54,645 bases of DNA from positions 1-54,645 of the IMG/VR virus record IMGVR_UViG_3300045988_061800; one strand, given 5' to 3'. How positions within the stretch are numbered: position 1 is the stretch's first letter; each line of letters opens with the position of its first letter. Position numbers and translations under genes: made by a program. The notes beneath the pieces were generated by a model. The model was not told the origin of the DNA. It made no database searches and was given only the letters and a program-made list of their open reading frames with translations. The stretch is from a virus. Below are positions 14,780 through 46,602 of the stretch, piece by piece.

Positions 14780-14996
14780 TATGATTTGCAAATATTTTTA
14801 TTTATTTTTTGAGTGGGTGCGATTTGTGCCAAATTATTATTATATATGTGTAGGCTGTTTGGTATGGGTATACCCCAGATAATCAAGGTATTACAAGGAT
14901 AACGGGCCGCCGGGCACCCCCGGGGGATAGGACAGGGCGGCCACCCACCACCTGAGCCCCCCTACCACAGAAAAATTAAAAAAAGCAAAAAACATG

Positions 14997-15026
14997 TTGA
15001 CAAACAACAAAATTATTTGTTATAAT
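14997..15026 (+). promoter_or_regulatory. Near-consensus promoter TTGACA-18-TATAAT with TGt extended -10
   Basis: TTGACA 14997-15002 and TATAAT 15021-26, 30 nt upstream of the recombinase start. Confidence 0.65.
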
Positions 15027-15056
15027 GAATTTGCAAACAAAAGGAGGCGAGATGGG

Positions 15057-15722
15057 ATGGCTGAGAGCATTTGTGTTGGATATGCGCGGGTGTCCTCGAA
15101 AGACCAAAATGAGGAGCGGCAGACTAAAATGCTGAAAGAGGCCGGAGTGCCGGAGCGGTACATCTTCATTGATAAAGAGAGCGGGCGGGACTACAACCGG
15201 GACAAATGGAACGCGATGATGACTGTAATCCGAAAGGGTGATACGGTTTTTGTGTGCAGCCTTGACCGGCTCGGAAGAAATTACACTGAGACTGGAAAAC
15301 AGTGGGAACATATCACGAAGGAGATCGGAGCAGATATTGTTGTGCTGGATATGCCCATTTTGGATACCAGGAAAACGAACGATCTCACAGGAACGCTGAT
15401 TGCTGATATTGTATTGAAAGTTCTTTCGTATGTGGCTGAGAAGGAAAGAATCAACACGCATGAGCGGCAGGCCCAAGGGATTGCTCTTGCTAAGGACAGA
15501 GGCGCATATAAAGGAAGAAAGCCGATTGAAATAGATGAGGTGGCTTTCGATGCAGCCTACAAAGAAGTTCTGTCTGATGGGAGGACGAACAAGTGGGCGA
15601 TGGAAAAGTTGGGGTTGCGTCCAAACACCTACTATAAGGCAGTTGCGAAGTATCGGGCGGAACACGGGTTGCCTCCGCTGGAGAGCCGAAACAAAAAGGG
15701 GGTAAAAAAGGGGGATGTTTAA
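15057..15722 (+). CDS. Small serine recombinase (resolvase/invertase type, 221 aa)
   Basis: VGYARVSSKDQNEERQ holds the catalytic Ser motif. Also DRLGRN. AAGGAGG lies upstream of ATG 15057. Confidence 0.85.
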   Translation: MAESICVGYARVSSKDQNEERQTKMLKEAGVPERYIFIDKESGRDYNRDKWNAMMTVIRKGDTVFVCSLDRLGRNYTETGKQWEHITKEIGADIVVLDMPILDTRKTNDLTGTLIADIVLKVLSYVAEKERINTHERQAQGIALAKDRGAYKGRKPIEIDEVAFDAAYKEVLSDGRTNKWAMEKLGLRPNTYYKAVAKYRAEHGLPPLESRNKKGVKKGDV

Positions 15723-16860
15723 CGAGGCAAACAAGAAACAGGTTCTTGAAATGCAGGATCAGTTTTATTCTGACAGAATCGGGAAAGTGTACGGCGATTT
15801 TGAAGTTACCCGTGTTTGGTATGATTGGGAAACACATAAACAGATGTGGGAGCTAACCTGTCAGAAGTGCGGAAGGAAGAAAGTCACGCATAACGGGAAA
15901 GATTATGCGAAAGGGAAGAATCAAGGGATTTGTGGGTGTGAAACAAGAAAAAGAATAGCAGCGGAAAAGGAAACCGCAAGGATTAAAAGAGAAAATTTGC
16001 CAAGCAACCCAAAGTGGATTGGGCAGAAAATTGGATGCTGGGAGATAATTGGATATAAAACGGGATTCGGCTGGAAAACGAGATGTACCTTTTGTGGTGC
16101 AGAGAATTACCACGCTCCAAAGTTTTTGTTGAGAGAAAATCCTATGGTTTGTATTTGCCAAACAAACCGAGGAAAGTTTGATATAGAAAAATGGAGAGGT
16201 GTTCGAAAATACCATCTAACCGTTGTTGGAAAACGCAAAAAGATGTTTGTGTGCAGATGTGATTGCGGTAGATCAGTTGAAGTAAATCCGGTGCTTTTTG
16301 AAAATGGGAAAATAAAGAGTTGTGGAAAAGCAGATTGTATTCATCATAAGTCCCTTATTAGTACACATGGATTATCAAAAGATAGGATATACAGAATTTG
16401 GAGCGGAATGAAAGAGCGGTGTTATAACCACAAAAACCATGCGTGGAAAACATACGGTGGGCGAGGAATAGACATTTGTGATGAATGGAGAGAGGATGTG
16501 TTTGCGTTTAGGGATTGGGCTCTGTCGCATGGGTATGCCGATAATTTATCAATAGACCGAATTGATAACGACAAAGGGTACTCACCAGATAATTGTAGGT
16601 GGGCTGATGCAAAGGCGCAAGCAAACAATCAACATCCGAAATATACATTTACCGCAAGACCAACCGAAAAGCGGAGCAGGAAACGGAAACTGGAATGGGA
16701 GATTAATGGAGAAACGAAGTCGGCCATTGATTGGTGCGAGCAATACGGATTGAGCTTTTCTTTTGTATCTTACCGCATTAAGAAAATGGGCATGACACCA
16801 TACGAGGCATTAACCACGCCGAAAGTTACCGCTGGTAGGCCAAAAACGACAATATCCTAA
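15715..16860 (+). CDS. Endonuclease-like DNA-binding protein: three Zn-ribbon repeats plus a C-terminal domain paralogous to 28056..28520
   Basis: The module G-x2-(F/Y)G...W-x-C-x-C-x-CG...CGC repeats three times. C-terminal RIYRIWSGMKERCYNHKNHAWKTYGGRGIDICDEW...SIDRIDNDKGYSPDNCRW. Confidence 0.6.
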   Translation: MFNEANKKQVLEMQDQFYSDRIGKVYGDFEVTRVWYDWETHKQMWELTCQKCGRKKVTHNGKDYAKGKNQGICGCETRKRIAAEKETARIKRENLPSNPKWIGQKIGCWEIIGYKTGFGWKTRCTFCGAENYHAPKFLLRENPMVCICQTNRGKFDIEKWRGVRKYHLTVVGKRKKMFVCRCDCGRSVEVNPVLFENGKIKSCGKADCIHHKSLISTHGLSKDRIYRIWSGMKERCYNHKNHAWKTYGGRGIDICDEWREDVFAFRDWALSHGYADNLSIDRIDNDKGYSPDNCRWADAKAQANNQHPKYTFTARPTEKRSRKRKLEWEINGETKSAIDWCEQYGLSFSFVSYRIKKMGMTPYEALTTPKVTAGRPKTTIS

Positions 16861-17021
16861 AAAATAAAAAAAGACGGCTCCATCACAGTGGAGGCCGCCT
16901 GCAAGCAGATTGGGATTAGTAAGATCCAGTGGTATGTGCTGGAAAGGAGAGCTTTCTAAAATCCCGTGAAAAAAAGGCGCATTGAAAAATCGCCGCACAA
17001 AACAAAAAGAGGGTGGTTTTG

Positions 17022-17693
17022 GTGAGTAAGATGAAAGACCTCGCCGGTCAAAGGTTCGGGGAACTGATAGTAATAGAACCCGCTGGGCGCTCGCCCAAAG
17101 GCGCCATGCTTTGGCGGTGCATGTGCCGCAAGTGCGGAAATGAGTGCGTCGTTGAGGGGCAACGGTTAACCGATAAAAAATCGCCAAAGAAAGATTGTGG
17201 ATGCAATAAGCGTGAGAAAACGGAAGATCTTACCGGGAAAACCTATGGTGCGCTGACTGTATTGAAGCGAACCGGAATTGACAAACACGGGAACGCGCTG
17301 TATCTGTGCAAGTGTTCCATGTGCGGTTTCGAAAAGGAGTTCCCCGCACAGACGATAAGAAGCAAACCAAAGGGATGTGGCTGCCAGCAATACAAAAGCG
17401 AGAATATGAAAAAATACTCTGAACTTGCCGTTAAGGCCAAGTTTGCAAAAACGGGTGGCATAAAGCGCGCAGATATTGCGGCAGCGAAGACAGACAAAGC
17501 GATGCTAAGAAGCAAAACTGGTGTGCGTGGTGTTATGCCGGAGAAAAACGGGAAAACATACCGGGCAGCCGTACAGGTTTCCGGAGAGCGCTGGGTAAAG
17601 ACGGGTTTTATGTCTATTGAAAGCGCGAAGGCCGCTTATGATTCAAAGAAGAGGGAGCTATTAGAGAAATATGGACTGGATCAAATGCTGTGA
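17022..17693 (+). CDS. Zn-ribbon repeat plus AP2-like DNA-binding protein (homing-endonuclease-associated type)
   Basis: Two copies of GQRFGELIVIE...WRCMCRKCG...CGC. C-terminal GVRGV...GKTYRAAVQVSGERWVKTGFMSIESAKAAYD is AP2-like. GTG 17022 follows AGAGGGTGG. Confidence 0.55.
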   Translation: MSKMKDLAGQRFGELIVIEPAGRSPKGAMLWRCMCRKCGNECVVEGQRLTDKKSPKKDCGCNKREKTEDLTGKTYGALTVLKRTGIDKHGNALYLCKCSMCGFEKEFPAQTIRSKPKGCGCQQYKSENMKKYSELAVKAKFAKTGGIKRADIAAAKTDKAMLRSKTGVRGVMPEKNGKTYRAAVQVSGERWVKTGFMSIESAKAAYDSKKRELLEKYGLDQML

Positions 17694-17697
17694 TAGG

Positions 17698-17898
17698 ATG
17701 CCGCCGGATATGGAGCCGGTAATGGTGACGGTAAGAGTCAATGATGGAGGAAAGCAGACCTGGGTTGATGTCTGATACAATCCAGAGTACAAAGAATGGG
17801 AACAGCTTGCGGATGCTGTTGGAGATTACTGGGAAGGGCTTGGAAAGGATTATGAAGTAACTCATTGGATTCCGTACCCGGAACCGGCGGAAGATTGA
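17698..17898 (+). pseudogene. DUF551-like ORF interrupted by an in-frame TGA at 17773
   Basis: Reads MPPDMEPVMVTVRVNDGGKQTWVDV-TGA-YNPEYKEWEQLADAVGDYWEGLGKDYEVTHWIPYPEPAED, all in one frame. THW(I/M)P(Y/L)PEP matches the intact DUF551 gene at 10743. Confidence 0.5.
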
Positions 17899-17906
17899 AT
17901 AATTGT

Positions 17907-17951
17907 AGTGCCAAGTGCCTCTCCAGATGGAGCGAACAGTGCCAAGTGCCT
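17907..17951 (+). promoter_or_regulatory. Late-gene motif pair A: AGTGCCAAGTGCCT x2 (17907, 17938)
   Basis: Two exact 14-mers lie 31 nt apart, 34-78 nt 5' of the terL ATG. Confidence 0.7.
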
Positions 17952-17984
17952 TTTATCTGAAAGGATAGGAGGCACTTTATTTTT
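17944..17984 (+). terminator. Hairpin AAGTGCCT/AGGCACTT plus TATTTTT abutting the terL start; the 3' side of the hairpin contains the GGAGG
   Basis: 8-bp stem 17944-51 / 17970-77 with an inner TATC/GATA pairing. The T-run ends at the ATG 17985. Confidence 0.5.
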
Positions 17985-19607
17985 ATGGAAATTCGGGAGC
18001 TGGTGAAGAGGGCGTTCAAGCGTGACCTCTCCGACCCGTCTGCGTTATCTGATGCCTTTGATACGTTGCGGCTGCTAGAACCAGAAGATTTTACCTTGGC
18101 CCATGAGCGAAACAAGGAAGTACGTCGGCTGTCCGCAAGATTCGCCGCAGAACAAAAAAGCCTCCGTATGTTCGAGCTGAACAAGCGGAGTCTGCTGTTT
18201 GATGCGCCGTATGATTTTGATGCGGCGATAAGATATGCTGAGTGGGATAGAGAGCCGAAAAAGAAGTTTTATATGCCACGCAGAAAGCAGTTACTTCCGG
18301 TTGTTCAAGCTATGCAGCGGCTATCTGAACGGAAGATACGCATTTTGGGTGTTATGGCTCCCCCGGGCGTCGGGAAGACCACCATTGAATTGATGTTCAT
18401 GGTGATGGAGGGGTTAAAGAATCCAGATTTAAGCATTCTGATGGGGTCGCACTCAAATTCATTCCTGCGTGGGGCTTATGAAGAAGTTGGGCGGATGTTA
18501 GATCCTAAAGGGGAGTATTTGTGGAAAGATATTTTCCCATCTATTCAAGTTTGTAAAACCAACGCCCAAGACATGCGGATTGATCTCGGGAAACGAAAGC
18601 GGTTTGAGACCTTTGAGTTTTCGTCTATCGGATCCGGCAATGCAGGCAAGGTCCGTGCGTCAAACCTGTTGGTAGCAGATGACCTTGTACCTGATATTGA
18701 GTCCGCAATGAGTAAAGAGCGCATGGACAAGCTCTGGCAGCAGTATTATACAGACCTCATGCAGCGTATGATCGGAGATTGTGTCCAGCTTCTTGTCCAA
18801 ACACCTTGGACGTTACATGACCCCATTGACCGACTTGAACTAGCCCATGCAGAAGACCCAATGGCAGAGTTTATCCACCTACCTGCTCTGGATGAAAATG
18901 ATGAGAGTAATTTTGATTATCCGTATGGACTTGGGTTTACCACGGCATTCTATCACAATCAGAGAGATGTTATGGACGATGCTTCCTGGAGGGCACTATA
19001 CATGACTCAGCCCATTGAGCGTGAAGGACAGCTATACAATGAAGATGAGCTGCGCAGGTATTTTGAGCTTCCTGACGGGAAACCAGATGCAATCCTGTTT
19101 GTGTGCGATACGAAGGACAAGGGCACTGATTATTGCGTCATGCCAATTTGTTACCAGTACGGGAATGCCTTCTATTGTGAAGACGTAGTATGCGACAACA
19201 GCAATCCAGAGGTTGTAGAGGCGCGGCTGGTGTCAAAGCTCCTTCAGCATAAGGCTCAAATGGGCCAGTTTGAAAGCAACAGCGCTGGTGGGAAAGTAGC
19301 AGAAAAAGTTCAGAAAGAAGTTAAAGAAGCTGGCGGTATAGCGAAAATCACCACAAAATATACGACACAGCAAAAGGAAACAAAAATCATAGTGAACTCG
19401 CCGTGGGTGAAAGACCATGTGCTGTTCAAAGACAACTCTGTCATAAAGAAGGACAAGGAATATCGAAGGATGCTCAACTTCCTTTGCGGGTATACGATGG
19501 CAGGTAAAAATAAGCATGATGATGTTCCTGATGCTTGGGCAATGTTTGCTGAGTATGTTCAGCAACTCGAAGGGAACAAAGTAGAGGTGTTCCGCCGTCC
19601 ATTTTAA
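17985..19607 (+). CDS. terL: Terminase large subunit
   Basis: Walker A MAPPGVGKTT and Walker B-like LLVADDL. 540 aa, upstream of the portal gene. Confidence 0.85.
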   Translation: MEIRELVKRAFKRDLSDPSALSDAFDTLRLLEPEDFTLAHERNKEVRRLSARFAAEQKSLRMFELNKRSLLFDAPYDFDAAIRYAEWDREPKKKFYMPRRKQLLPVVQAMQRLSERKIRILGVMAPPGVGKTTIELMFMVMEGLKNPDLSILMGSHSNSFLRGAYEEVGRMLDPKGEYLWKDIFPSIQVCKTNAQDMRIDLGKRKRFETFEFSSIGSGNAGKVRASNLLVADDLVPDIESAMSKERMDKLWQQYYTDLMQRMIGDCVQLLVQTPWTLHDPIDRLELAHAEDPMAEFIHLPALDENDESNFDYPYGLGFTTAFYHNQRDVMDDASWRALYMTQPIEREGQLYNEDELRRYFELPDGKPDAILFVCDTKDKGTDYCVMPICYQYGNAFYCEDVVCDNSNPEVVEARLVSKLLQHKAQMGQFESNSAGGKVAEKVQKEVKEAGGIAKITTKYTTQQKETKIIVNSPWVKDHVLFKDNSVIKKDKEYRRMLNFLCGYTMAGKNKHDDVPDAWAMFAEYVQQLEGNKVEVFRRPF

Positions 19608-19632: not shown

Positions 19633-19662
19633 TTGATTAAATCGTATATATTGTGGTATAAT
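19633..19662 (+). promoter_or_regulatory. Strong promoter TTGATT-18-TGgTATAAT driving the tRNA/ncRNA array
   Basis: TTGATT 19633-38, extended -10 TGg at 19654-56, TATAAT 19657-62, directly after the terL stop. Confidence 0.6.
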
Positions 19663-20898: not shown

Positions 20899-21066
20899 AT
20901 GAAGATTGACATTTATTGTCCGGTCTGTGCCGCTGCTGGCATCAATCATGGAAAAGGGCGGCTTTTGATGCAGGTGGATAGCAAAACAACTGGTATAGTT
21001 TATCCATACTGTAAGGCTTGCAAGAAAAACATCAAGATTGAGTTAAAAGGCGATAAAAGCGCCTGA
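20899..21066 (+). CDS. Com-like Zn-ribbon protein (55 aa)
   Basis: MKIDIYCPVCAAAG...VYPYCKACKKNIKIELK: two CxxC pairs about 30 aa apart, as in Mu Com-type regulators. Under 60 aa, so absent from the track. Confidence 0.5.
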   Translation: MKIDIYCPVCAAAGINHGKGRLLMQVDSKTTGIVYPYCKACKKNIKIELKGDKSA

Positions 21067-21079
21067 GAATATATAGTTT

Positions 21080-21128
21080 AGTGCCAAGTGCCTCCGGGCA
21101 ATGCCTGGACGAAGCGTGCCGAGTGCCG
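21080..21128 (+). promoter_or_regulatory. Late-gene motif pair B: AGTGCCAAGTGCCT (21080) and CGTGCCGAGTGCCG (21115)
   Basis: Same motif as at terL, 60-108 nt 5' of the portal start. Confidence 0.7.
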
Positions 21129-21171
21129 AGAGTAGACCTTATACGGGTCTGTTCTTGGCACTTTTTTGTTT
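21123..21171 (+). terminator. Strong intrinsic terminator between the Com-like gene and portal
   Basis: 16-bp stem GTGCCGAGAGTAGACC / GGGTCTGTTCTTGGCAC (with G.U pairs), a 7-nt loop, then TTTTTTGTTTG. The 5' arm starts inside motif copy 2. Confidence 0.75.
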
Positions 21172-21187
21172 GTCTGGAGGTGACAGA

Positions 21188-22663
21188 GTGACTGAAAACA
21201 ATACTGTTCGAGCTATATCCGAGTGGCCGGTCAATGGGCTGACTGGGCGTAGAAAAATTTACACCGCCAAAAAGAAAGTTACCCCGGAAAATGTGGTGGA
21301 GGTGCTGGGCAAGGCACTGGCCGTGCATCGCATCAACAGTGCGGAAATGTCCTATTTGTATGACTATTACAGAGGCAAACAGGACATCCGGCTGAAAGAT
21401 AAAATCGTCCGCCCGGAGATCAACAACAAGGTGATGATTAACCGGGCGAACGAAATCGTGGTATTCAAGTCTGCTTACCTTCTGGATGGCCCAATCCGTT
21501 ATGTGTCCAACGGCGGAGAAGATGATATTTCTTCTAATGTGAATACATTGAATGAATATATGCGAGCCGAGAGCAAAGACACTCTCGACAAAGAGCTGGC
21601 AGACTGGATGCACATCTGCGGTGTTGCGGTCCGCATGGTCCTCACTGACGAAGTCGGAGAAGAAGACGGGTCCCCGGCATCCATATATACCCTTGACCCA
21701 AGAGCGGCGTTTTGCATCTACCATAGCGGAGTAGGGCAGAAAAAGGTCGCTGGTGTGCTGGAACAGGTAGATGATGAGGGACAGCCCTACTTCTGCGTGT
21801 ACACCCCAGAATGGTATTTCGAGGTGCAGAACGGTCAGATCACTAAGCAGGAGGGCCGTACCATCCCCTACATCCCTATTGTGGAGTATGTGAACAATGA
21901 CGCCCGCATGGGTGCGTTTGAGCCGGTCATCCCAATCCTGAACGCAATCAACATGATTGAATCCAACCGGCTTGACAGTATTCAGGATTTCGTCAACGCC
22001 TTTGATGTGTTCCAAAACTGTGAGTTAGAGGACGGTCAATATAAGGAACTGGCAAAGGGCGGGATGGCAATTACTATCAAAAGCGTTCAGGCTGGTATGG
22101 AGGCCAAAGTATACCGCATCGCCTCTGAACTGAACCAGACCAACACGCAGACCATTGTGGACGATTTGGAGGACGCATACCTGACCATCTGCGGGATGCC
22201 GAACCGGAACGGAGGTTCCTCTACCAGCGACACTGGGCAGGCGGTCATTTACCGAGATGGATGGTCTGCCGCTGAGAGCCGGGCCAAGGACACGGAAAAG
22301 ACATGGGAGCGGTCGGAACGGGAGTTCCTGCGGCTGGTGCTGTATATCTGCCGTGAGACTGGCGATTTGGATTTGCAGTTGGCAGACATCAAGCCGGAGT
22401 TCACCCGCAAGAACCTGTCCAATATCCAGTCCAAGGCGCAAGTTCTGGCGGAGATGCTGAACAACAGCAAGATTCATCCGAAGTTAGCCTTCCAGTACAG
22501 TGGGCTATTCAGCGATCCCGAATCTGCGTACCGCGTAAGTATGGATTGGTACGAGGAAAACCAGCGCAAGATGGAGCGGAGCCTGCGGGATGAACTGGCG
22601 GCGGAACGATTTAATGGGAGCGACCCGGCCAATCCGCAGGCCGGCGGCGGTGATACTGAATGA
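21188..22663 (+). CDS. Portal protein (SPP1 gp6-like)
   Basis: GTG 21188 lies 7 nt after GGAGG. The track start 21101 would include the terminator. 491 aa, between terL and the MuF-like gene. Confidence 0.8.
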   Translation: MTENNTVRAISEWPVNGLTGRRKIYTAKKKVTPENVVEVLGKALAVHRINSAEMSYLYDYYRGKQDIRLKDKIVRPEINNKVMINRANEIVVFKSAYLLDGPIRYVSNGGEDDISSNVNTLNEYMRAESKDTLDKELADWMHICGVAVRMVLTDEVGEEDGSPASIYTLDPRAAFCIYHSGVGQKKVAGVLEQVDDEGQPYFCVYTPEWYFEVQNGQITKQEGRTIPYIPIVEYVNNDARMGAFEPVIPILNAINMIESNRLDSIQDFVNAFDVFQNCELEDGQYKELAKGGMAITIKSVQAGMEAKVYRIASELNQTNTQTIVDDLEDAYLTICGMPNRNGGSSTSDTGQAVIYRDGWSAAESRAKDTEKTWERSEREFLRLVLYICRETGDLDLQLADIKPEFTRKNLSNIQSKAQVLAEMLNNSKIHPKLAFQYSGLFSDPESAYRVSMDWYEENQRKMERSLRDELAAERFNGSDPANPQAGGGDTE

Positions 22664-23271
22664 GCGGGTTCTATGATCTTACCGACAAAGCCATTGACCT
22701 TTTGAACAAGAGGGCAGTCAAGCGGTTTGAGGATGCGAAAGACGAAGTTGCGCAGATGGGCTTTGATGAACTCAATGTGCTGGAAGTCACCCGAACACTA
22801 TATGACCAACTGCGCAAGGACAACCAAGATGTCTTTCTTGAACTAGCGCAAGAGCGGTATCAGGAGGCCGAACCGCATGGAGAGGAGCCGCCTAATTTAG
22901 CGTGGTTACTGGCATTGCTGGCGGCGTACAACGCTGTGACGAAATACCAGTATTCCCGCGAATGGGAGCGCAAGCGTGACCGCACAGCGGAGGCTATTAA
23001 CTCTACTACCGCAAAGGTCACAGAGTTTCGCCGGGGCCTTTCCTACTGGGCGCAGATGACGGAATGGTATGCGGTGGAAGTCACAGACCAGTCCACACTG
23101 AAAGCGTTCCAGGACAGCGGCGTGCGCTATGTGAAATGGAACACCATGAATGATGGGCGTGAGTGCTCCACTTGTAAGGAGCGAGACGGAAAAATTTATC
23201 CCATCCGGAGCATACCAAGCAAGCCCCACCCTGGTTGCCGGTGCTGGTATACCCCGGCGGAGAAAAAGTGA
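22660..23271 (+). CDS. Head morphogenesis protein (SPP1 gp7 / Mu F-like)
   Basis: C-terminal DGRECSTCKERDGKIY...HPGCRCW motif. Confidence 0.75.
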   Translation: MSGFYDLTDKAIDLLNKRAVKRFEDAKDEVAQMGFDELNVLEVTRTLYDQLRKDNQDVFLELAQERYQEAEPHGEEPPNLAWLLALLAAYNAVTKYQYSREWERKRDRTAEAINSTTAKVTEFRRGLSYWAQMTEWYAVEVTDQSTLKAFQDSGVRYVKWNTMNDGRECSTCKERDGKIYPIRSIPSKPHPGCRCWYTPAEKK

Positions 23272-23367
23272 ATAAACGGGCGGCTATCCCGACGGGGAGA
23301 AAAGTGGAGTGCCTTGCCACCTGCCGCCTGTTCATTCTACAAGGTTAACTATTGGAGGCGATAGTTG

Positions 23368-23916
23368 ATGGAAGAAATCTGGAAAGATATTGATGGGTAC
23401 GAGGGGAAATACCAAATAAGCAATTTGGGCAATGTAATGAGCCTTAATTATGCAGGAAGAGGATACGCGAGAAAACTTACACCAAAGTGTAATAACAGCG
23501 GGAGACTTTGGGTGGAGTTGCTTGATGGAGGGAAAAGAAAGTGTATGCTCATTCATCGGCTGGTTGCACTTGCGTTTATACCAAACCCAGAAAACCTGCC
23601 ACAGATAAATCATAAAGACGAAAACCCGAAAAACAATGCCGTAGAAAACCTTGAATGGTGTGACCAAAAATACAACATCCGATATTCATTGGAGAGGCAT
23701 CCAGAAAGATATAAAGAAAAGAGACAAACTGCCAAATATGGAAGACGGCTTAATTTGAAAGTAGACCAATTCGACAAAGATGGTAACTTCATTAAACGAT
23801 GGCCAAACTCAAGGACGATCCATGTTGAAACAAAAATGAGCGATTGGGGCATTTCTGAGTGTTGCAGAGGGAATAGGAAAACGGCTCATGGATTTATCTG
23901 GCGATATGCCAGTTAA
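23368..23916 (+). CDS. NUMOD4/HNH_3 homing endonuclease inserted between the head morphogenesis and scaffold genes
   Basis: GYEGKYQISNLGNVMS and HRLVALAFIPNPENLPQINHKDENPKNNAVENLEW. ATG 23368 lies 9 nt after GGAGG. Confidence 0.75.
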   Translation: MEEIWKDIDGYEGKYQISNLGNVMSLNYAGRGYARKLTPKCNNSGRLWVELLDGGKRKCMLIHRLVALAFIPNPENLPQINHKDENPKNNAVENLEWCDQKYNIRYSLERHPERYKEKRQTAKYGRRLNLKVDQFDKDGNFIKRWPNSRTIHVETKMSDWGISECCRGNRKTAHGFIWRYAS

Positions 23917-28931: not shown

Positions 28932-28960
28932 AGTGCCGAGTGCCTCTGTGCCAAGTGCCT
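28932..28960 (+). promoter_or_regulatory. Late-gene motif pair C: AGTGCCGAGTGCCT (28932) and TGTGCCAAGTGCCT (28947)
   Basis: Same motif, 15-nt register, 29-57 nt 5' of the major tail ATG. Confidence 0.7.
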
Positions 28961-28988
28961 CCCTAAAAAATTAGGAGGTACTATTTTT
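28954..28988 (+). terminator. Hairpin AGTGCCTCC/GGAGGTACT plus ATTTTT abutting the major tail start; the 3' arm is the SD
   Basis: 9-bp stem 28954-62 / 28974-82 with one G.U pair. T-run 28984-88, ATG 28989. Confidence 0.5.
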
Positions 28989-29507
28989 ATGGCAGGAATC
29001 CAACTTAGCACAGCGGGCGTCACCCTGTTGTACGCCGCAGAAGCCACCGCTGGCACTCGCCCGACTACTGGGTACGAAAAAATCTCCGAAATCAAAAGCA
29101 TTCCTGAGTTGAACCCTGAGCCCGACAACCTGGAAACAACGACCTTGGAAGAGACGGAGTGGAAGACCTATGTCCCAGGCTTGAAGGACATCGGCGGCGC
29201 ACTGTCTTTTACGGCAAACCTGACCGAGGCATCTATGACCGAGTGGGAGGGCGTTGTCGATGCCTATGATACGGCAGCCGCCGGAAATAAGGCTACTTGG
29301 TTCTGTATCGTGATTCCTGGGCTGACCAAGGCACTGTATTTCACGGGTCAGCCCTCCCCGATGGGTATGCCCGCTATGGAGGTCTCTGCTGTTCTGGAAA
29401 CAACTCTCTACATCACCCCGACCGGTGCGCCTCAGTGGGCAGCAAAGCCTACTGATCTGGAAAGTATGAGTCTGAGATCTTCTACCAAGAAAAACGTTGA
29501 GGTTTGA
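28989..29507 (+). CDS. Major tail protein
   Basis: 172 aa, immediately upstream of the G/T chaperone pair and tape measure. Confidence 0.75.
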   Translation: MAGIQLSTAGVTLLYAAEATAGTRPTTGYEKISEIKSIPELNPEPDNLETTTLEETEWKTYVPGLKDIGGALSFTANLTEASMTEWEGVVDAYDTAAAGNKATWFCIVIPGLTKALYFTGQPSPMGMPAMEVSAVLETTLYITPTGAPQWAAKPTDLESMSLRSSTKKNVEV

Positions 29508-31297: not shown

Positions 31298-31331
31298 TCA
31301 AAGATATAATACCGGGCTTGTAAATCGAAGT

Positions 31332-31366
31332 CCCCGCTATCTTATATGAGGTGGCGGGGGCTTTTT
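31332..31366 (+). terminator. Terminator of the lipoprotein moron
   Basis: CCCCGC...GCGGGG stem followed by CTTTTT. Confidence 0.55.
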
Positions 31367-31374
31367 ATATCTTT

Positions 31375-31403
31375 AGTGCCAAGTGCTTCATTGCCAAGTG
31401 CCG
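31375..31403 (+). promoter_or_regulatory. Late-gene motif pair D (degenerate): AGTGCCAAGTGCTT (31375) and ATTGCCAAGTGCCG (31390)
   Basis: Same 15-nt register as pair C, 23-51 nt 5' of the tape-measure ATG. No convincing downstream hairpin. Confidence 0.6.
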
Positions 31404-31425
31404 TATTTCAGAAGGTGGTAGCATC

Positions 31426-39762: not shown

Positions 39763-41827
39763 ACGGATTGGGGAATTGCCTCTTATCGAAGACCTTGATG
39801 ATGAGTCTTTTTTTGTGGCTGAACAACAAGGTGCAGCAGGACATATTACCGGCGCACAGATAAAGGGATTCGCCCGGAAGTCCGTGGAGGATATTGCAAA
39901 CGCTTCCCAGAAATCGGCTGAAGCGGCGGCGAAGAGTGCGTCTGCAGCCCAGGAGAGCGCTACTCAGGCGGAGGAAGCGCAGGAAGCAGCAGAGAGTGCC
40001 AAGAGTGGGGCAGAGGTTGCACAAAAAGCGGCGGAAACGGCACAAGGCGCCGCCGCGGACGCGCAGGCCGGGGCGGAGAGCGCCAAGACGGCAGCGGAGG
40101 CAGCGGCGGACGTTGCAGCGAAAGACGCCGCCGAAGGTGTGCGGGAAGAGCTCTCCGTCTATGTGGAGCAGACTAAGGCAAACGCCCAGGCGGCAGCAGA
40201 TTCGGCTTCGGAGGCCGCAGCGTCCCAAGAGGCCGCAGCAAAAAGCGCCCAGGGGGCGGCAGGCAGTGCAACTGCGGCGGCGCAGAACGCGGTGGATGCG
40301 GCGGATGCCAGAACGGCTGCCGAAGCGGCACAGGGCAAGGCGGAGGCCGCCCAGGTGGTTGCGGAAGCAGCCAAGAGCGGGGCGGAGACAGCGGCGGGCA
40401 CGGCCACTACAAAGGCCGAAGAAGCAAGCGCGAGCGCCGAGACCGCCAAGCAGTACAGCGGAAAACCGCCGAAGCCGCAGAATGGAACCTGGTGGGTATG
40501 GAACGCAGAGACCCAGGCGTATACCGATACCGGGATTAAGTCTGTTCTCTCCATTGTGAAATCCTATCCCTCTGTGGAGGCTATGGAGGCGGACAAGCTC
40601 AATATGCATGAGGGCGACCTAGTTATCATCGCCTCCACTGTAGATGACCCAGATAACTCCAAGCTCTATGTGCATGATGGCGTTGGCTGGGTGTATCTCT
40701 CCGATCTTTCCGGCGTGGAGGGCGTGGGGATTGCGGGCATCTCTCAGACTGACGGCAACCATGCGCCGGGCACCACGGACACCTACACAATTGAGCTGAC
40801 CGATGGGAGCTCATACGAGTTCACTGTCTACAATGGTGCGGATGGCGACGGAAGCGGAGACATGCAGTCTTCTACATATGACCCACAGGGCAAGGCGCAA
40901 GACATCTTCGGATATGCGGACAATGCAGCAAAAGGCAAGCAAGACAAGCTGAAAGGTACCGCTGGCCAGGTGGTAGGCTTTGACTCCGAAGGCAACGCAA
41001 TCCCCCAGGCGGCCCCCAGCGGATTGCCGGATGGCGGAACTGTGGGGCAGTTGCTGGAAAAAACGGAGGACGGGGCAGAGTGGGCAGACAAGCCTGTGAT
41101 GTATGTAAACATAACGCCACCGGCTGGAGATTCCCCGTTCGGAACGGCTGACCACACGATTGCTGAAATAACGCAAGCAGTCTTGAACGGGGTAACCGTG
41201 CTTTCAAAAATATCGGCAGGAACCGATACTAAAGTAATTCCACTTTCGACTGTAACAGACAGTGTGGCTTCCTTTTCGTCTACGTCTGTAGACTACGGCG
41301 GGTCTGTTATCGCCAATATTGTACCCCAAGAACAGTCCGAAGTGGTTATTATAGCGGAAGATCAATTTAGAGCAAGCCAGATTCTATACGATAAAGGAAC
41401 GAGTGGCCTTGATTCAGATGATGTGCAAGGCGCAATCAAAGAACTGGCTAAGAACAAGCAGGACTCCGCAGATGCTGTAACTGTTTCCGGCGGCGGCACG
41501 ATGCAGATGGGGGAGAGCCTGGGCAAAGGGCCGTACACCATTGAGGTGACAGAAGACGGAGAGGGCGGCGACCTCTCCGCCGAATATGTGGGCTACAGCA
41601 ACACGGGCAGCGGCCTGGAGGCCACCAATGTGCAAGAGGCTATCGACGAGCTGGCGGGGAAGGGCGGAGGCGAGTATCTGCCTTTGACTGGCGGGACTAT
41701 GACGGGGCCTCTCACTTTAAGCGGGCTGCCGACCAGCGAAAACCACGCCGCCAACAAGCAGTATGTGGATGGCTTGGTTGGTGACATCAATGCCATGCTG
41801 GATGCCATCAACGGGGAGGTGGTGTGA
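39752..41827 (+). CDS. Tail fibre with long Ala-rich coiled-coil repeats
   Basis: AAEAAQ/AKSA-type repeats over residues 45-240. C-terminal LPLTGGTMTGPL...AANKQYVD fibre motif. Confidence 0.8.
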   Translation: MADKRIGELPLIEDLDDESFFVAEQQGAAGHITGAQIKGFARKSVEDIANASQKSAEAAAKSASAAQESATQAEEAQEAAESAKSGAEVAQKAAETAQGAAADAQAGAESAKTAAEAAADVAAKDAAEGVREELSVYVEQTKANAQAAADSASEAAASQEAAAKSAQGAAGSATAAAQNAVDAADARTAAEAAQGKAEAAQVVAEAAKSGAETAAGTATTKAEEASASAETAKQYSGKPPKPQNGTWWVWNAETQAYTDTGIKSVLSIVKSYPSVEAMEADKLNMHEGDLVIIASTVDDPDNSKLYVHDGVGWVYLSDLSGVEGVGIAGISQTDGNHAPGTTDTYTIELTDGSSYEFTVYNGADGDGSGDMQSSTYDPQGKAQDIFGYADNAAKGKQDKLKGTAGQVVGFDSEGNAIPQAAPSGLPDGGTVGQLLEKTEDGAEWADKPVMYVNITPPAGDSPFGTADHTIAEITQAVLNGVTVLSKISAGTDTKVIPLSTVTDSVASFSSTSVDYGGSVIANIVPQEQSEVVIIAEDQFRASQILYDKGTSGLDSDDVQGAIKELAKNKQDSADAVTVSGGGTMQMGESLGKGPYTIEVTEDGEGGDLSAEYVGYSNTGSGLEATNVQEAIDELAGKGGGEYLPLTGGTMTGPLTLSGLPTSENHAANKQYVDGLVGDINAMLDAINGEVV

Positions 41828-41828
41828 T

Positions 41829-42299
41829 GTGGGCACTGCTGCGGATAAGCTAACCTATTTACAGGAGACGAAAGAGGCAATTCGGAAAGCAATTGAGGCG
41901 CAGGGGGGGACTGTGGCCGCGGGGCTCCCATTTCGTCAATATGCGGGATATATCACGCGCCTCACCCCGCCGAATGCTTTGGCGGTATCGGACGGTGACG
42001 TACAGGTTACCTGTAAGCTGGGCCACCCAGTACGGGTAGATGGGCCATTAGCCTACCCAACGGGTAAGACCTACTATCTGTCGCTAGAAGGGGACGGACT
42101 CCCTGAGATTGGGAATATGCGCTGCCCTAAAGGGGCGATTCTCTTAATTACCCCTCTATCGGCAGGAGGGAAAATCGCTGTAGAGGGTGGAGCGGAGGCA
42201 CTTGGCACATCCTCTGATGGCGGCCAGACATACCGAATAACAGGAGATTTTCTGATTTTTAGCTCAGGTGGTATGCACAGCGGCGGGAGCATCAACTAA
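41829..42299 (+). CDS. Tail-fibre-associated protein (156 aa)
   Basis: GTG 41829 lies 6 nt after GGGGAGGTGG. N-terminal KLTYLQETKEAIRKAIEAQGGTV. Confidence 0.6.
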   Translation: MGTAADKLTYLQETKEAIRKAIEAQGGTVAAGLPFRQYAGYITRLTPPNALAVSDGDVQVTCKLGHPVRVDGPLAYPTGKTYYLSLEGDGLPEIGNMRCPKGAILLITPLSAGGKIAVEGGAEALGTSSDGGQTYRITGDFLIFSSGGMHSGGSIN

Positions 42300-42340
42300 A
42301 GTAGATAACTACACGCACCACCTTCTTGGAGACATAAAAA

Positions 42341-42364
42341 GCCACCCCCGTCGGAGGGGGTGGC
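42341..42364. other. 9-bp GC hairpin GCCACCCCC/GGGGGTGGC with an A-run only on its 5' side
   Basis: On the minus strand it would read as stem plus CTTTTTAT, a terminator orientation opposite to all local genes. Confidence 0.4.
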
Positions 42365-42548
42365 ATGGACCAATGAAAGGTGAGGGGGTAAAAATGTTGG
42401 TCCGCGAAGTCATTATAGCATCCTGGAAGAGAATAGGCAAGCCTTCTAAGAAAGAGGAAGTGACGAATCAGTATGAAAAGAATCGACTTTGACAAGTACA
42501 CCACCGCGGTCGCCAGCATCGGCATGTGGCAATGGGTGGAGGTGTAAC

Positions 42549-43346
42549 ATGGCTATCGTTGTAAACGGCAAAAAAGTTGCCGGGGTGGGACTGCCTGGCA
42601 AAGACGGAGCTCCAGGGGCAGACGGCAAGGATGGTGCACCTGGAAAGTCCGCCTATCAGGCGGCAAAAGAGAAAGGATATACCGGAACCGAAGAGGAGTT
42701 TAACACCGCTCTGGCTGGTATGCAAAGTGCTCCATTCCTGCCGCTGAGCGGAGGAACAGTTGAGGGCGTTCTCGAAATTAGATCAGGGATTGAATTTGGC
42801 TATGGCAGCAATTCGATAGAACTATCTCCCTCATCTGCAAGTCGGCTTGAATTGGTGGCTAATGCTTCCGGCGGGTCCAGTGGCGGCTCGATTGGCGGAA
42901 CAGTTGAGCTGATAGGGTTGTCCGCGCCAACGGCATCCAATAGTGCCGCAAATAAGCAGTACGTGGACGAGCACGCGGGGTCGAGGGTTATTTTGGGGAG
43001 CTATGTGGGGACAGGAAAAACAGGTAAAAGCAACCCTAATCAAATAACCTTAGCCGAACCCTTTAAAATACTCTGTATTTATGGCATGCAATGGCCAGAT
43101 TCGTATCGAAGTATCGACAATTCTGGTACTGGCGAAACTTCTGTCATTATTCCCGGCAGCATTATCCCTACTGAGTATACAAGCGGCTTTGGTTTTTTCT
43201 ACTCTAGCAACTCAAGAGATTCTTACGGTAAAAAATCAGCGGATGGAAAAACTTTCAGTTGGTATTATGACTATACTCCATCTGATGCAGCAACTGTGCA
43301 GCTTAATTTATCTCAAGTTGTATATCACTACTACGCCATAGTTTAG
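42549..43346 (+). CDS. Tail fibre with collagen-like G-X-Y repeats
   Basis: GLPGKDGAPGADGKDGAPGKSAYQAAKEKGYTGTEEEF. GGAGGTG lies upstream of ATG 42549. Confidence 0.75.
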   Translation: MAIVVNGKKVAGVGLPGKDGAPGADGKDGAPGKSAYQAAKEKGYTGTEEEFNTALAGMQSAPFLPLSGGTVEGVLEIRSGIEFGYGSNSIELSPSSASRLELVANASGGSSGGSIGGTVELIGLSAPTASNSAANKQYVDEHAGSRVILGSYVGTGKTGKSNPNQITLAEPFKILCIYGMQWPDSYRSIDNSGTGETSVIIPGSIIPTEYTSGFGFFYSSNSRDSYGKKSADGKTFSWYYDYTPSDAATVQLNLSQVVYHYYAIV

Positions 43347-43366
43347 AAATAAGAGGTGAATTAAAT

Positions 43367-43678
43367 ATGACCATCATCCAAATTGACCCGCTGGAGACCG
43401 GCCAGCACCCGATCCAGAGCCAGAGCGGGCGGCACGCCTGCTGGCTGGAGGGCTACATAGAGGTGCCCGCCCACCTCCATGACGCGGTGTGGGCGACCTA
43501 TGGCTGGTGTGACCTCCAGATTGAGGGGGACAAGCTGGTGGGCATCACGCCTACTGAGCGGCCTCCAGAGCCGGAGCCGGAACCCCAGCCGCCCCTCGCA
43601 GAGGACATCACTCTGGACATGCTGTCCGAGCACGAGGAACGACTTTGTATGTTGGAAATCACCACCAATGCTGTTTGA
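43367..43678 (+). CDS. Hypothetical protein (103 aa) with a PEPEPEPQP linker
   Basis: ORF track. GAGGTG lies upstream. Confidence 0.55.
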   Translation: MTIIQIDPLETGQHPIQSQSGRHACWLEGYIEVPAHLHDAVWATYGWCDLQIEGDKLVGITPTERPPEPEPEPQPPLAEDITLDMLSEHEERLCMLEITTNAV

Positions 43679-43692
43679 GGAAGGGGAAGGAC

Positions 43693-43842
43693 ATGAACAC
43701 GGTATTTAATCTCTGCAAGCTGCTTATTGACCGGGGCCGCACCGACGGCCTCCAGGACAAGATGGATGTCTATCTCGCCGCCGACCGGCTCACCCCGGAG
43801 GAGTACCAGGAGCTGGCCGGGCTACTGGCCCCGGAACAGTAA
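43693..43842 (+). CDS. XkdX-family small protein
   Basis: 49 aa ending ...RLTPEEYQELAGLL, the typical XkdX pattern upstream of lysis genes. Confidence 0.55.
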   Translation: MNTVFNLCKLLIDRGRTDGLQDKMDVYLAADRLTPEEYQELAGLLAPEQ

Positions 43843-43871
43843 TCAACAGCGGGATCGCTGGATAAAAGGAT

Positions 43872-45227
43872 GTGAATCAAATGAGTAAGCTCATTACATA
43901 CATCCCGCTCTCGTCCGTGGAGCGTATGGAGCTGCGGATCACCAACTGCCGCAAGACACTTTCCCAGGTCAAGTCAGAGACTGGTGCCCACTATGTGTTG
44001 AATGGCGGCATGTGGAACCCAGATGGCTCGGCCTGCCCGCTGCTCAAGGTGGGTGGGGTAATGCGCTCCGGCACACCATGGAGGACAATGGGCTACGCCT
44101 GGGACAAGGGCCCGGACATCCGCATGACCTCCGAGTACGAGGGAGCGGCCAACTTTATCGCGGTTACTGCCCTCATTGCCTCCGGCAAGCCGGTGGATAA
44201 GCCCTCCTATGGCTCGGCCCAGGGGGGCAAGCGGGGGCGCAGCGTCATCGGCCTGCGCGGTGGCAGTCTGGCCCTTTACTGCTCCGGCAACGGTACCAGG
44301 GATACAGCCACGCCAGAGACTCTGCGGGACGAGCTGGCCGGGCTGAGCTGGTCCTCCGCCGTCATGCTGGACGGGGGCGGCTCCAGCCAGTGTGACTTTG
44401 GCGGAGAGCGCATTACCGCCAGCCGCAAGGTGCACAACTGGATTTGTGTCTGGCTCAAACAGGGCGGCCAGAAGCCGCCGGAAGAGGAGGACAAGCCTAT
44501 GAGCAAGCATACTGTATGCCTTGACCCCGGACACGGGCCGGGCAACGTCAACGGATCCCCGGACGGTACATACAAGGAGTGGGAGTTTACCTGGGATATT
44601 GCACAGCGTATCAAGCCGTTGCTGGAGGCCCAGGGGGTGGGCGTGGTGCTCACCAAGACGGCGGACAACTACCCCAGCCTGACGGAGAGGGCCAACATCA
44701 GCAATAAGGCAAAGCCGGATTGCTTTGTGAGCATCCACACCAACGCCGCCGGGGAGGGCGGATGGTCGAGCGCGTCCGGGCTGGAGATCTACACCAGCGC
44801 AGGGCCTATGACGGCGCAGCGCAATGTTCTGGCCTCCAAGCTGGTCAACGCGTTCCACGCCGCCGGGGTCTCCCTGAGAAGTGAACCTATCAAGCATGAG
44901 ATGTATACCGTGCTCGCCAAGACGGACGCCCCCGCCGCACTCATTGAGTACGGCTTCCACACCAACAAGACGGACACGGAGTATCTCAAGGATAGCAAGT
45001 ACCGGGACAAGCTGGCCGAAGCCACCGCAAAGGGCATCTGTGAGTTCCTGGGCGTGGTGTGGCAAGCCGAACAGGGGGAGGACAACGCGGAGTACACCCC
45101 GGACAAATGGGCCTCTGAGGCGTGGCAGAAGGCCAAAGACAAGGGAGTTCTGGACGGCACCCGGCCCCGCGATAATATGACCCGGCAGGAGCTGGCCGTC
45201 GTGCTGGATCGGTTGAATCTGATTTGA
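43872..45227 (+). CDS. Endolysin: NAGPA/DUF2233-like N-domain, Amidase_3 domain and SLH-like C-terminal motif
   Basis: MLDGGGSSQ, then LDPGHG...SIHTNA (MurNAc-LAA), then WQKAKDKGVLDGTRPRDNMTRQELAVVLDRL. Confidence 0.8.
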   Translation: MNQMSKLITYIPLSSVERMELRITNCRKTLSQVKSETGAHYVLNGGMWNPDGSACPLLKVGGVMRSGTPWRTMGYAWDKGPDIRMTSEYEGAANFIAVTALIASGKPVDKPSYGSAQGGKRGRSVIGLRGGSLALYCSGNGTRDTATPETLRDELAGLSWSSAVMLDGGGSSQCDFGGERITASRKVHNWICVWLKQGGQKPPEEEDKPMSKHTVCLDPGHGPGNVNGSPDGTYKEWEFTWDIAQRIKPLLEAQGVGVVLTKTADNYPSLTERANISNKAKPDCFVSIHTNAAGEGGWSSASGLEIYTSAGPMTAQRNVLASKLVNAFHAAGVSLRSEPIKHEMYTVLAKTDAPAALIEYGFHTNKTDTEYLKDSKYRDKLAEATAKGICEFLGVVWQAEQGEDNAEYTPDKWASEAWQKAKDKGVLDGTRPRDNMTRQELAVVLDRLNLI

Positions 45228-45241
45228 TGGAGGTACATATC

Positions 45242-45514
45242 ATGGACATTTCTTCTTTGGGTATCACCGGAGTAGCGGTTATCACTGTGATCTGCTTCCT
45301 CGTCGGGCAGGTCGTCAAAGCCACCGGCCTGGACAATAAGTGGATTCCCATTATCTGCGGTGTGTTTGGCGCGGTGCTTGGCATCCTCGGCATGTTTATT
45401 ATGCCCGAGTTCCCGGCCAGCGATTACCTAACAGCCGCCGCTGTTGGCATCGTCTCCGGTCTTGCGGCCACTGGTATCAATCAGGTCTATAAGCAGTTGA
45501 CTAAGGAGGGCTGA
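45242..45514 (+). CDS. Holin
   Basis: 90 aa with 2-3 TM segments, directly after the endolysin. GGAGG lies 9 nt upstream. Confidence 0.7.
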   Translation: MDISSLGITGVAVITVICFLVGQVVKATGLDNKWIPIICGVFGAVLGILGMFIMPEFPASDYLTAAAVGIVSGLAATGINQVYKQLTKEG

Positions 45515-45843
45515 TGCCCATGGAGTGGGTAGGCCCACTGATTTCCGGCGCGGCGGTCGTTCTGGTGGCAATCATTGAGGCGGTCGCCGCGCGGGAACGG
45601 AAACGTGTCAAGGCAGATAACCAAAAGAGCGACGCGCTCATGCAGGGCGTGCAGGCCCTCCTCAGGCGCGAAATCATTGCCGAGTACAACCACTACTCCG
45701 AACAACGTTATATCCCGATCTACGGCATGGAAAACGTGCTGGACATGTACAACGCCTACAAGGCGTTAGGCGGGAACGGAATGGCGGCAAAACTGGTGGA
45801 GGCCCTGAAACAACTGCCCACGGAGCCGCCGGAAGGGACGTGA
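45514..45843 (+). CDS. N-terminally membrane-anchored protein (lysis-associated?)
   Basis: TM segment WVGPLISGAAVVLVAIIEAV. ATG overlaps the holin stop. Confidence 0.55.
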   Translation: MPMEWVGPLISGAAVVLVAIIEAVAARERKRVKADNQKSDALMQGVQALLRREIIAEYNHYSEQRYIPIYGMENVLDMYNAYKALGGNGMAAKLVEALKQLPTEPPEGT

Positions 45844-45847
45844 CTGA

Positions 45848-46108
45848 ATGAGCGCAAGAGCGAAGTTACCGGAACCATTGGATAAACTCTTGCGCTCTCA
45901 GTTGGAGAACGCCATCCACGAGGCTGCCCTACACCGCGACGATGAATTGATCGCCAAGCGGCGCATCATTGATAAGTGGGGACAGATTGATGTTGCGGCG
46001 GAGCTGGGCTGGGATCGAAGCACAGTTAGCGACCACGAGAAATACATATTCCAGAGGGTTGAGGCTGTAGCAAAACAACTCTATACGAAAAAGGGAGCCG
46101 GGGATTAA
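45848..46108 (+). CDS. Small HTH protein resembling sigma-70 region 4 (candidate transcription regulator)
   Basis: IDVAAELGWDRSTVSDHEKYIFQRV helix-turn-helix. 86 aa. Confidence 0.5.
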   Translation: MSARAKLPEPLDKLLRSQLENAIHEAALHRDDELIAKRRIIDKWGQIDVAAELGWDRSTVSDHEKYIFQRVEAVAKQLYTKKGAGD

Positions 46109-46409: not shown

Positions 46410-46602
46410 GCTCCCTTTCTATTATAAAGTAACATCTCAAAAAGTAAATACAAAAAATTACGCGAATCCCCCATAACTTCCACACAACCCCCACATGTGT
46501 GCCGCCCATGCGGGGTTATTTTATGCGACAATATAGACATGGAGGACGTGAGGAACAAGGGTTGGTACACGTCGCCGCCCTCCTCACGGACTCCTTATTT
46601 TT

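Follow-up and report, generated by a model that had tools for sequence, protein, structure and literature searches.

Paired GUGCC motifs ahead of viral late genes point to a leader-RNA operator, probably read by a Com-like zinc-ribbon protein

Why should the same short repeat stand in pairs before four late genes of one virus, and what reads it? The DNA in question is the IMG/VR virus record IMGVR_UViG_3300045988_061800 (positions 1 to 54,645; this whole stretch of 54,645 nucleotides (nt) is called the window below), and the question arose at positions 17,907 to 17,984, the leader of the gene terL. A preliminary description, made from the letters alone, had noted there a pair of AGTGCC(A/G)AGTGCC motifs coupled to a hairpin sequestering the Shine-Dalgarno (SD) sequence, and had offered two options: a switch at the RNA level, operated by a factor binding the GUGCC repeats, or a DNA-level late promoter or Q-type loading site. 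We followed this up by an entirely computational analysis using motif, fold, synteny and profile comparisons, in which motif statistics, architecture, hairpins, synteny, the remote-homology signal and the covariation of pentamer and protein subfamily were computed directly. The answer we lean towards is that an unrecognised branch of the Com zinc-ribbon proteins is the master switch by which a large group of Clostridia phages of the human gut turns on its late genes, reading GUGCC or GAGCC dyads on nascent RNA.

An exhaustive search of the 54.6 kb, which the preliminary description had scanned by eye, returned eight exact matches of GTGCCRAGTGCY, compared with 0.04 expected from shuffled sequences. 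Allowing up to two mismatches, nine copies were found, eight on the sense strand as four pairs and one in antisense orientation, to which we return below; the eighth sense-strand copy, at 31390, contains one mismatch. Each 12-mer is a dyad, with AA or GA between its two GUGCC pentamers. The pairs lie at 17907/17938, 21080/21115, 28932/28947 and 31375/31390, so that all eight copies described earlier at four late genes were recovered at their positions. The downstream genes were identified via PHROGs as terL (17985..19607), portal (21188..22663, with a GTG start) and major tail protein (28989..29507), and the fourth pair precedes a tape-measure gene, the open reading frame (ORF) of 1293 residues starting at 31426. 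The leaders contain the following features:

17907..17950, plus strand: terL leader operator, dyad 1 at 17907-17919 and dyad 2 at 17938-17950
17920-17937, plus strand: spacer hairpin CUCCAGAUGGAG with a CGAAC tail, between the terL dyads
17944..17984, plus strand: terL terminator and SD-sequestering hairpin from the terminator scan, stem of 15 base pairs (bp) at 17944-17977, U-run UAUUUUU at 17978-17984
21080..21127, plus strand: portal leader operator, dyad 1 at 21080-21092 and dyad 2 at 21115-21127
21093-21109, plus strand: portal spacer hairpin UCCGGGCAAUGCCUGGA
21121..21173, plus strand: intrinsic terminator of the portal leader from the terminator scan, 19-bp stem at 21121-21163, U-run at 21164-21173
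28932..28988, plus strand: major-tail leader, dyads at 28932-28944 and 28947-28959 (four pentamers with gaps of 2-3 nt)
31375..31425, plus strand: tape-measure leader, degenerate dyads AGUGCCAAGUGCU at 31375-31387 and AUUGCCAAGUGCC at 31390-31402
31327..31364, plus strand: strong intrinsic terminator of a Sie-like moron, directly before the tape-measure operator (context, outside the switch)

Terminator scanning and folding reproduced the hairpin proposed for terL, with its arms AAGTGCCT.../...AGGCACTT, the AGGAGG (17967-17972) within the 3' arm and the ATG at 17985 immediately after the U-run; the minimum free energy (MFE) of this leader is -29.1 kcal/mol (z = -2.64). The earlier view that hairpin coupling is peculiar to terL was not borne out, as it recurs with a longer stem and U-run at portal and with the SD in the 3' arm at the major tail gene. 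The portal stem is followed by UUUUUUGUUUG, and both the SD GGAGG (21176-21180) and the GTG start at 21188 lie downstream, outside the hairpin (MFE -52.3 kcal/mol, z = -4.53); therefore, transcription and not only translation must be controlled at this gene. The major-tail hairpin (28954-28982, z = -2.14) holds the SD GGAGG at 28974-28978 in its 3' arm and is followed by AUUUUU, with the U-run at 28984-28988, and the ATG at 28989. Folding of the leaders, which had been suggested as a check, thus yielded stable structures at these three loci, and a weak hairpin at the tape-measure gene (z = +0.20), with the SD GAAGGUGG at 31411-31418 and the ATG at 31426. Relatives of the tape-measure type fold with -9 to -14 kcal/mol into a hairpin without a U-run, which includes the SD and ends at the AUG. 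At terL, portal and major tail, the last pentamer of copy 2 opens the 5' arm of the hairpin, and three of the four window leaders contain an intrinsic terminator.

We then scanned IMG/VR with the paired pattern. At least 107 related viral loci were listed, giving 80 distinct contexts, and all following counts of distinct elements, spacers and downstream genes are those among the matches listed. The same layout occurs in these loci and in Clostridia prophages, in agreement with the earlier expectation that the position of the motif should be conserved in relatives. The element is co-directional with its genes in all viral loci listed and in the prophages L108-L111 (loci are given by our L numbers), and it precedes terL in 59 cases, portal in 49, tape-measure genes in 13, major tail genes in 13 and DNA methyltransferase genes in four. 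The same pairing of element and zinc-ribbon protein (see below) was found in prophages of the bacterial genomes of Flavonifractor sp. An92 and of Ruminococcaceae/Clostridiales metagenome-assembled genomes; the An92 prophage (L108) carries nine copies, all on the sense strand. Two pattern matches, L039 5554 and L106 1199, seem unrelated to the system, the former consisting of four to five tandem AGTGCCA heptads in a GC-rich region without a terminator and the latter of a repetitive proline/glutamine-rich coding repeat, so the bare pattern is not fully specific.

The start-to-start distance of the dyads falls into two classes of 7, 14 or 15 nt and of 29-35 nt. Each of the 18 distinct spacers of the long class forms a small hairpin; these hairpins are built from about ten unrelated stem sequences and followed by a YRAAsA tail. 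Single-hairpin folding of 81 distinct elements, with shuffled downstream sequence as the control, gave a mean free energy of -20.5 kcal/mol versus -5.9 kcal/mol for the controls. Terminator-grade hairpins (at most -10 kcal/mol and at least five U in eight positions) starting from the A/AGUGCC of the last pentamer were present in 60 of the 81 elements, 23 of them with the SD inside the stem; 12 further elements, mainly of the tape-measure type, have a hairpin without a U-run whose 3' arm is the SD ending at the AUG. The hairpin starts at the A/AGUGCC in virtually every element, and the remainder of the stem is variable: inner stems are unrelated between lineages, and a compensatory AGUGCU...AGCACU change was seen. 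G.U pairs account for 207 of 1192 stem pairs (17%) and are thus common enough that the structures make sense only in sense-strand RNA. In the methyltransferase leaders, a sigma70-type promoter TTGCAT-17-TATAAT lies about 20 nt upstream of the motif, which is therefore transcribed. Together, these comparative results argue strongly for an RNA leader element and against a promoter or DNA operator. Judged from the sequences, the pairs very probably represent an RNA-level operator which competes with a hairpin. The anchoring of the hairpin in the last GUGCC, spacer-stem compensation, G.U pairs, the position of the upstream promoter and the synteny of the candidate regulator all favour the first option of the preliminary description, and the second explains none of these.

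One lineage and one single locus deserve mention for the genes that follow the element. The methyltransferase lineage (L014 1604, L053 433, L074 3651 and L105 178) combines a near-consensus sigma70 promoter with a degenerate double dyad and a terminator, and its gene codes for a DNA methyltransferase (MKLYCADCMDIL...DLPYGTT), which parallels the control exerted by Com in Mu-like phages. At L070 3086, on the minus strand of the locus, the element precedes the gene for a 62-residue multi-CxxC protein (MVIKTHGCLYEKPFECSVCGC...CPECGHG), another small zinc-binding protein that would be regulated in this way.

The preliminary description had named two candidate regulators. The second, an ORF of 86 residues at 45848..46108, gained no support, and PHROGs contained no match for either of the two. 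The first became the better founded, since it keeps constant synteny with the element and is probably a remote homolog of Com:

20899..21066, plus strand: gene of a 55-residue CxxC...CxxC zinc-ribbon protein, candidate trans-acting RNA-binding activator
19633..19662, plus strand: sigma70-like promoter TTGATT-18-TATAAT with a TG element, just past the terL stop, of putative function

Behind this promoter follow the genes for tRNA-Ile, tRNA-Thr and tRNA-Met and the zinc-ribbon gene, and a sigma70-like promoter between terL and the zinc-ribbon gene was present in eight of the 11 lineages checked. Family members have 49-55 residues, and in several divergent lineages their gene is the one immediately before the portal-type element; for each of the 52 portal-type elements that could be assessed, a zinc-ribbon gene lies within 450 nt upstream. 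The residues C7, C10, C38 and C41 are invariant in 34 diverse members, and an AlphaFold2 model (predicted local distance difference test 89.9) shows a zinc ribbon with beta-ribbon topology. The family is small and unannotated, comprising 27 clusters in a word-indexed search and 92 representatives at 50% identity in an exhaustive profile search. A sequence search of the PDB with the protein gave no match, and none of the deposited phage genomes encodes it.

Distant family members contain a CxxC...KLLFK...CxxCK pattern which we take to be Com-like, and which led us to compare the family with Com from the Mu record. Aligned by hhalign to Mu Com alone, the family scored a probability of 71%, which rose to 88.5% (E 2.7e-6, 44 columns) with an alignment of 14 Com members, suggestive values to be read with the very short proteins and the shallow Com profile in mind. 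The aligned columns span KLLFK and both knuckles. Among the controls, reversed alignments scored 6% and 43%; shuffling of columns gave no more than 1%, and shuffling with the four cysteines fixed no more than 22%. On these sequence profiles, the family is a probable remote homolog of Com rather than a demonstrated member.

The comparison extends to the RNA sites. Com recognises 5'-CC(N)2-3GAG-3' adjoining the translation-inhibition hairpin of mom, and selection by SELEX (systematic evolution of ligands by exponential enrichment) yielded the bipartite consensus GAGNNCC(N)2-3GAGNNCC (PMC6483171). In the Mu record (L113), this site lies at 876-894 in the 3' part of com (769-957), just 5' of the mom start at 908. 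As in Mu, the candidate regulator considered here is tiny (about 55-62 residues) with an N-terminal CCCC zinc ribbon, its gene is directly upstream of a target, and the RNA site is located in or just past the 3' end of its coding sequence (CDS), 5' of an inhibitory hairpin which covers the translation start of the target. The grammar at the sequence level is CC-N2-4-G(A/U)G versus CC(N)2-3GAG of Com, and takes the form CC-AA/GA-GUG in the window, overlapping the 5' arm of the hairpin; the window pentamer is GUGCC, where the Mu target is of the GAG type. Com homologs also precede DNA methyltransferases in other Mu-like phages and prophages, namely FluMu, Pnm1 and B3 (PMC3299994), a position shared by our element, but only in the four related loci. 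Unlike in Com/mom, where a single DNA-modification gene is controlled, several sites in each genome would serve structural late genes, U-runs make intrinsic terminators of most hairpins, the portal SD outside its hairpin differs from control of translation only, and the hosts are Clostridia (Oscillospiraceae) instead of Proteobacteria.

The pentamers also vary along with the protein. L114 has AGUGCC-UA-AGUGCC and a terminator at three late leaders, and L115 and L116 have GUGCC-N3-4-GUGCC. In L111, whose protein is 45% identical to that of the window, the array reads GAGCC-CA-GAGCC-AUA-GAGCC-AA-GUGCC. The most Com-like subgroup (L196-L201) has GAGCC-N2-4-GAGCC at or after the end of the CDS in all six sampled members, with a U-run terminator that starts at the second pentamer and precedes a portal-like gene; in L197 and L201, another dyad stands before the large upstream gene. 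In L196-L199 and often in L114-L116, the zinc-ribbon CDS contains the dyad in its 3' end; the dyad accounts for the '...EPLSR' peptides that recur at the C terminus in the most Com-like subgroup. Two cultured Flavonifractor phages have neither the protein nor the element.

These findings can be combined into the following model. Each site would be a leader-RNA operator of two to four GUGCC pentamers, 2-3 nt apart or bridged by a small hairpin, with the last pentamer forming the first half of the 5' arm of the inhibitory hairpin. By default, the hairpin would form, and the gene would not be transcribed and/or not translated. The zinc-ribbon protein, made from its own promoter together with the three tRNAs, would bind the CC-N2-4-G(A/U)G junctions (CC-N2-3-GUG in the window) of the nascent RNA before the 3' arm emerges, and GUGCCAAGUGCC RNA is the predicted binding target of the 55-residue protein. 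With the 5' arm held single-stranded, RNA polymerase would read through and the SD would be exposed. At portal, a pure intrinsic terminator, the effect would be on transcription; at terL and major tail, where the terminator also buries the SD, on transcription and translation; and at the tape-measure gene, with its SD-masking stem, on translation only. The switch would be non-processive and repeated at every late leader. Because the transcription unit of the regulator ends at a terminator which the regulator itself would relieve, it might act as a feed-forward switch into portal and the head genes. RNA binding by the protein, activation as the direction of the effect, and timing are parts of the model which we infer. 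We consider it fairly probable, as far as sequences can tell, that a Com-type zinc-ribbon protein on the repeats of nascent RNA relieves both termination and SD occlusion. With somewhat more reserve, we favour the wider view that this protein is a local, non-processive antiterminator and translational activator at the terL, portal, tail, tape-measure and DNA methylase leaders.

Several observations weigh against this model. None of the 34 family members matched Pfam PF10122 at E <= 0.05, a profile which recognises Mu Com itself with 36.8 bits; 14 of the 34 matched Cys_rich_KTR weakly, and a match to DUF3797 was also weak. Foldseek returned no significant match for the structural model, the top non-significant hits being ribosomal zinc ribbons. 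The Mu Com site is presented in a hairpin loop, whereas the pentamers described here seem to be single-stranded. Relatives of the L182 type have lost one zinc-ligand cysteine and have no element. The regulator gene sits past the terL terminator and would need its own promoter, which is predicted from its match to the consensus. Moreover, the covariation of pentamer and protein subfamily is confounded by shared ancestry, and where the dyad lies inside the zinc-ribbon CDS, the passage of ribosomes alone could open the terminator.

The last point leads to the alternative that survives best, namely that operator and hairpins are real and another factor acts on them, be it a phage or host protein or ribosomes translating an upstream ORF, while the zinc-ribbon gene is a bystander. 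It draws on the uninformative Pfam and Foldseek searches, on the location of dyad and 5' arm within the zinc-ribbon CDS in L114-L116 and L196-L199, where translation could melt the terminator, and on the distance of the terL, major-tail and tape-measure elements from the zinc-ribbon gene. We regard it as unlikely: it leaves the synteny at 52 of 52 elements unaccounted for, as well as the change from GUGCC to GAGCC with the protein subfamily, and it would turn both the similarity to Com and the match to the Com RNA motif (PMC6483171) into coincidences. Coupling to ribosomes in particular fails for elements following non-coding gaps, tRNAs or terminators, as at terL, the tape-measure gene and L200.

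Distinctly less probable is that the hairpins are plain insulators of morons, tRNAs and homing endonucleases, and that the GUGCC array is a determinant of RNA processing or stability, such as a nuclease target or a 5' stabiliser. Several elements of the window do follow insertions, namely HNH genes at terL, the tRNA block at portal and the Sie-like moron at the tape-measure gene, and phage T4 provides a precedent for sequence-specific RNA targets in its endoribonuclease RegB. An insulator accounts neither for the overlap of pentamer and 5' arm throughout the lineages nor for the frequent location of the SD in the 3' arm or the way in which the pentamer sequence follows the Com-like protein, and the essential terL, portal and tape-measure genes would lie behind strong terminators and thus need a relief mechanism.

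A DNA-level site, be it a promoter for late genes, a site for an activator, a Q-type loading site ahead of a promoter-proximal terminator, an operator of omega/ribbon-helix-helix heptad type or a stoperator-like site, appears least probable of all: the direct repeats with 7-bp period, their intergenic location in one orientation, the AT-rich sequence upstream and the use of oriented repeats by ribbon-helix-helix proteins and stoperator repressors speak for it, but the dyad spacing varies (7, 14, 15 or 29-35 nt) and -35/-10 elements at a constant distance are missing, the last pentamer invariably forms the base of an RNA hairpin, the frequent G.U pairs and the spacer stems that pair despite sequence change fit sense-strand RNA only, a sigma70 promoter lies upstream of the motif in the methylase leaders, the dyad is found within coding sequence in distant lineages, the motif is essentially invariant across at least 100 contigs, unlike immunity operators, and a processive Q-type factor needs no site before each gene. 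A scan for terminators and promoters, which included related contexts, did not find a Q-binding element placed within a promoter. Motifs 1 and 2 as -35 and -10 elements were rejected on the variable spacing, as was a pac site or terS binding site on the presence of several sites per genome, some of them before tail genes.

Returning to the proposed Com-type switch, its operator resembles those of passive antitermination (HutP, BglG/SacY-RAT, ANTAR, GlpP) in being a sequence-specific leader site which overlaps the 5' arm of an intrinsic terminator; TRAP and PyrR follow the inverse logic. Short repeats with variable spacers, and two-part sites bridged by a linker, recall the repeats of HutP and TRAP and the dual hairpins of ANTAR. 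The differences from these families are the missing sequence relationship, the phage-encoded regulator, a regulon of phage morphogenesis and the lack of apparent ligand sensing. With lambda N/nut, Q/qut, HK022 put and P4 Psu, it shares the phage-encoded control of late transcription at terminators. These systems modify RNA polymerase once for many terminators; here, the site is repeated and overlaps each stem, which therefore points to local competition with the hairpin.

The earlier remark that the element does not obviously match a described system stands, with Com/mom as the nearest relative. Rfam 15 contained no family above the gathering threshold for the four window loci and nothing at E <= 1 for three related loci, and permissive scans of the leaders yielded only noise far below threshold. 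Literature searches for the motif string, zinc-ribbon antitermination and Com-like control of portal, structural genes or terminators retrieved nothing relevant. New relative to Com/mom are the multi-site control of morphogenesis, the relief of terminators together with SD unmasking, the GUGCC code and the Clostridia hosts.

For decades, Com has been treated as a one-off, a zinc finger that in Mu-like phages unlocks the translation of just one DNA-modification gene. If our reading is true, proteins related to Com govern morphogenesis as a whole in abundant gut Clostridia phages via antitermination by hairpin competition, a mode of late control that differs from the N, Q and put paradigms as well as from activators of the RinA/ArpU type, and Com/mom would be a degenerate remnant, with one target only, of a far broader regulatory principle. 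A compact and apparently programmable protein-RNA code would then consist of GUGCC versus GAGCC, spacers of 2-4 nt and a 55-residue protein. It would provide a sequence signature by which late operons and their regulators could be annotated in gut phages that are uncultured, and the synthetic biology of Firmicutes might gain a small orthogonal switch acting on terminators.

The antisense copy mentioned above qualifies the earlier statement that all copies, with none noticed elsewhere, are on the plus strand, which holds for the eight paired copies:

42197..42208, minus strand: orphan antisense dyad, exact copy of GTGCCAAGTGCC, inside the CDS 41790..42299

It is the single orphan of the window, where many copies scattered at chance frequency had been named as a possible objection. 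About 0.63 generic dyads are expected by chance in the window, none of the at least 107 related loci listed has an antisense copy, and no locus has copies on both strands; the copy is probably a chance occurrence. Across it, the CDS encodes ...AEALGTS..., and a strong terminator (42340-42366) follows about 130 nt downstream of the copy. If the region is transcribed, its mRNA would hold a perfect complement of the operator. A trans-acting antisense RNA from this site was considered and rejected for a single orphan within a CDS, near chance expectation and absent from relatives.

Some features of the surroundings were recorded as well. Upstream of terL, the plus strand codes for a serine invertase/recombinase (14994..15722) and HNH endonucleases (15715..16860 and 17013..17693), with a perfect TTGACA-18-TATAAT promoter match at 14997-15026; no small terminase subunit was recognisable. 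A small plus-strand gene at 17671-17898, whose stop codon is 9 nt upstream of the terL operator, has an in-frame stop at codon 35 (MDWIKC...WVDV-stop-YNPEYKEW...PEPAED-stop). It is intact (75-89 residues) in the relatives L012, L029 and L082, and the interruption in the window reflects a pseudogene, a site of readthrough or an error in sequencing. The segment 19633-20872 (plus strand), after terL and before the zinc-ribbon gene, contains tRNA-Ile(GAT), tRNA-Thr(TGT) and tRNA-Met(CAT); this block is the only segment in common with the cultured Flavonifractor phages Castelnaud and Chenonceau (87-93% identity), where it is annotated as hypothetical proteins.

Further downstream, an int-alpA RNA (Rfam RF02996; 57.5 bits versus a gathering threshold of 35.8) at 23277-23344 on the plus strand lies between the gene for a minor head protein (22660..23271) and a head-module ORF (23365..23916), a notable position inside a late operon. 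A RAGATH-31 RNA (RF03101; 84.4 bits versus 71.8) was found at 46541-46594 on the plus strand, past the lysis region, in a part whose only predicted ORFs are weak ones on the minus strand. The region 40000-46000, comprising distal tail/fibre and lysis genes, has a G+C content of 58-60% versus about 45-52% elsewhere, which suggests a mosaic segment of different origin.

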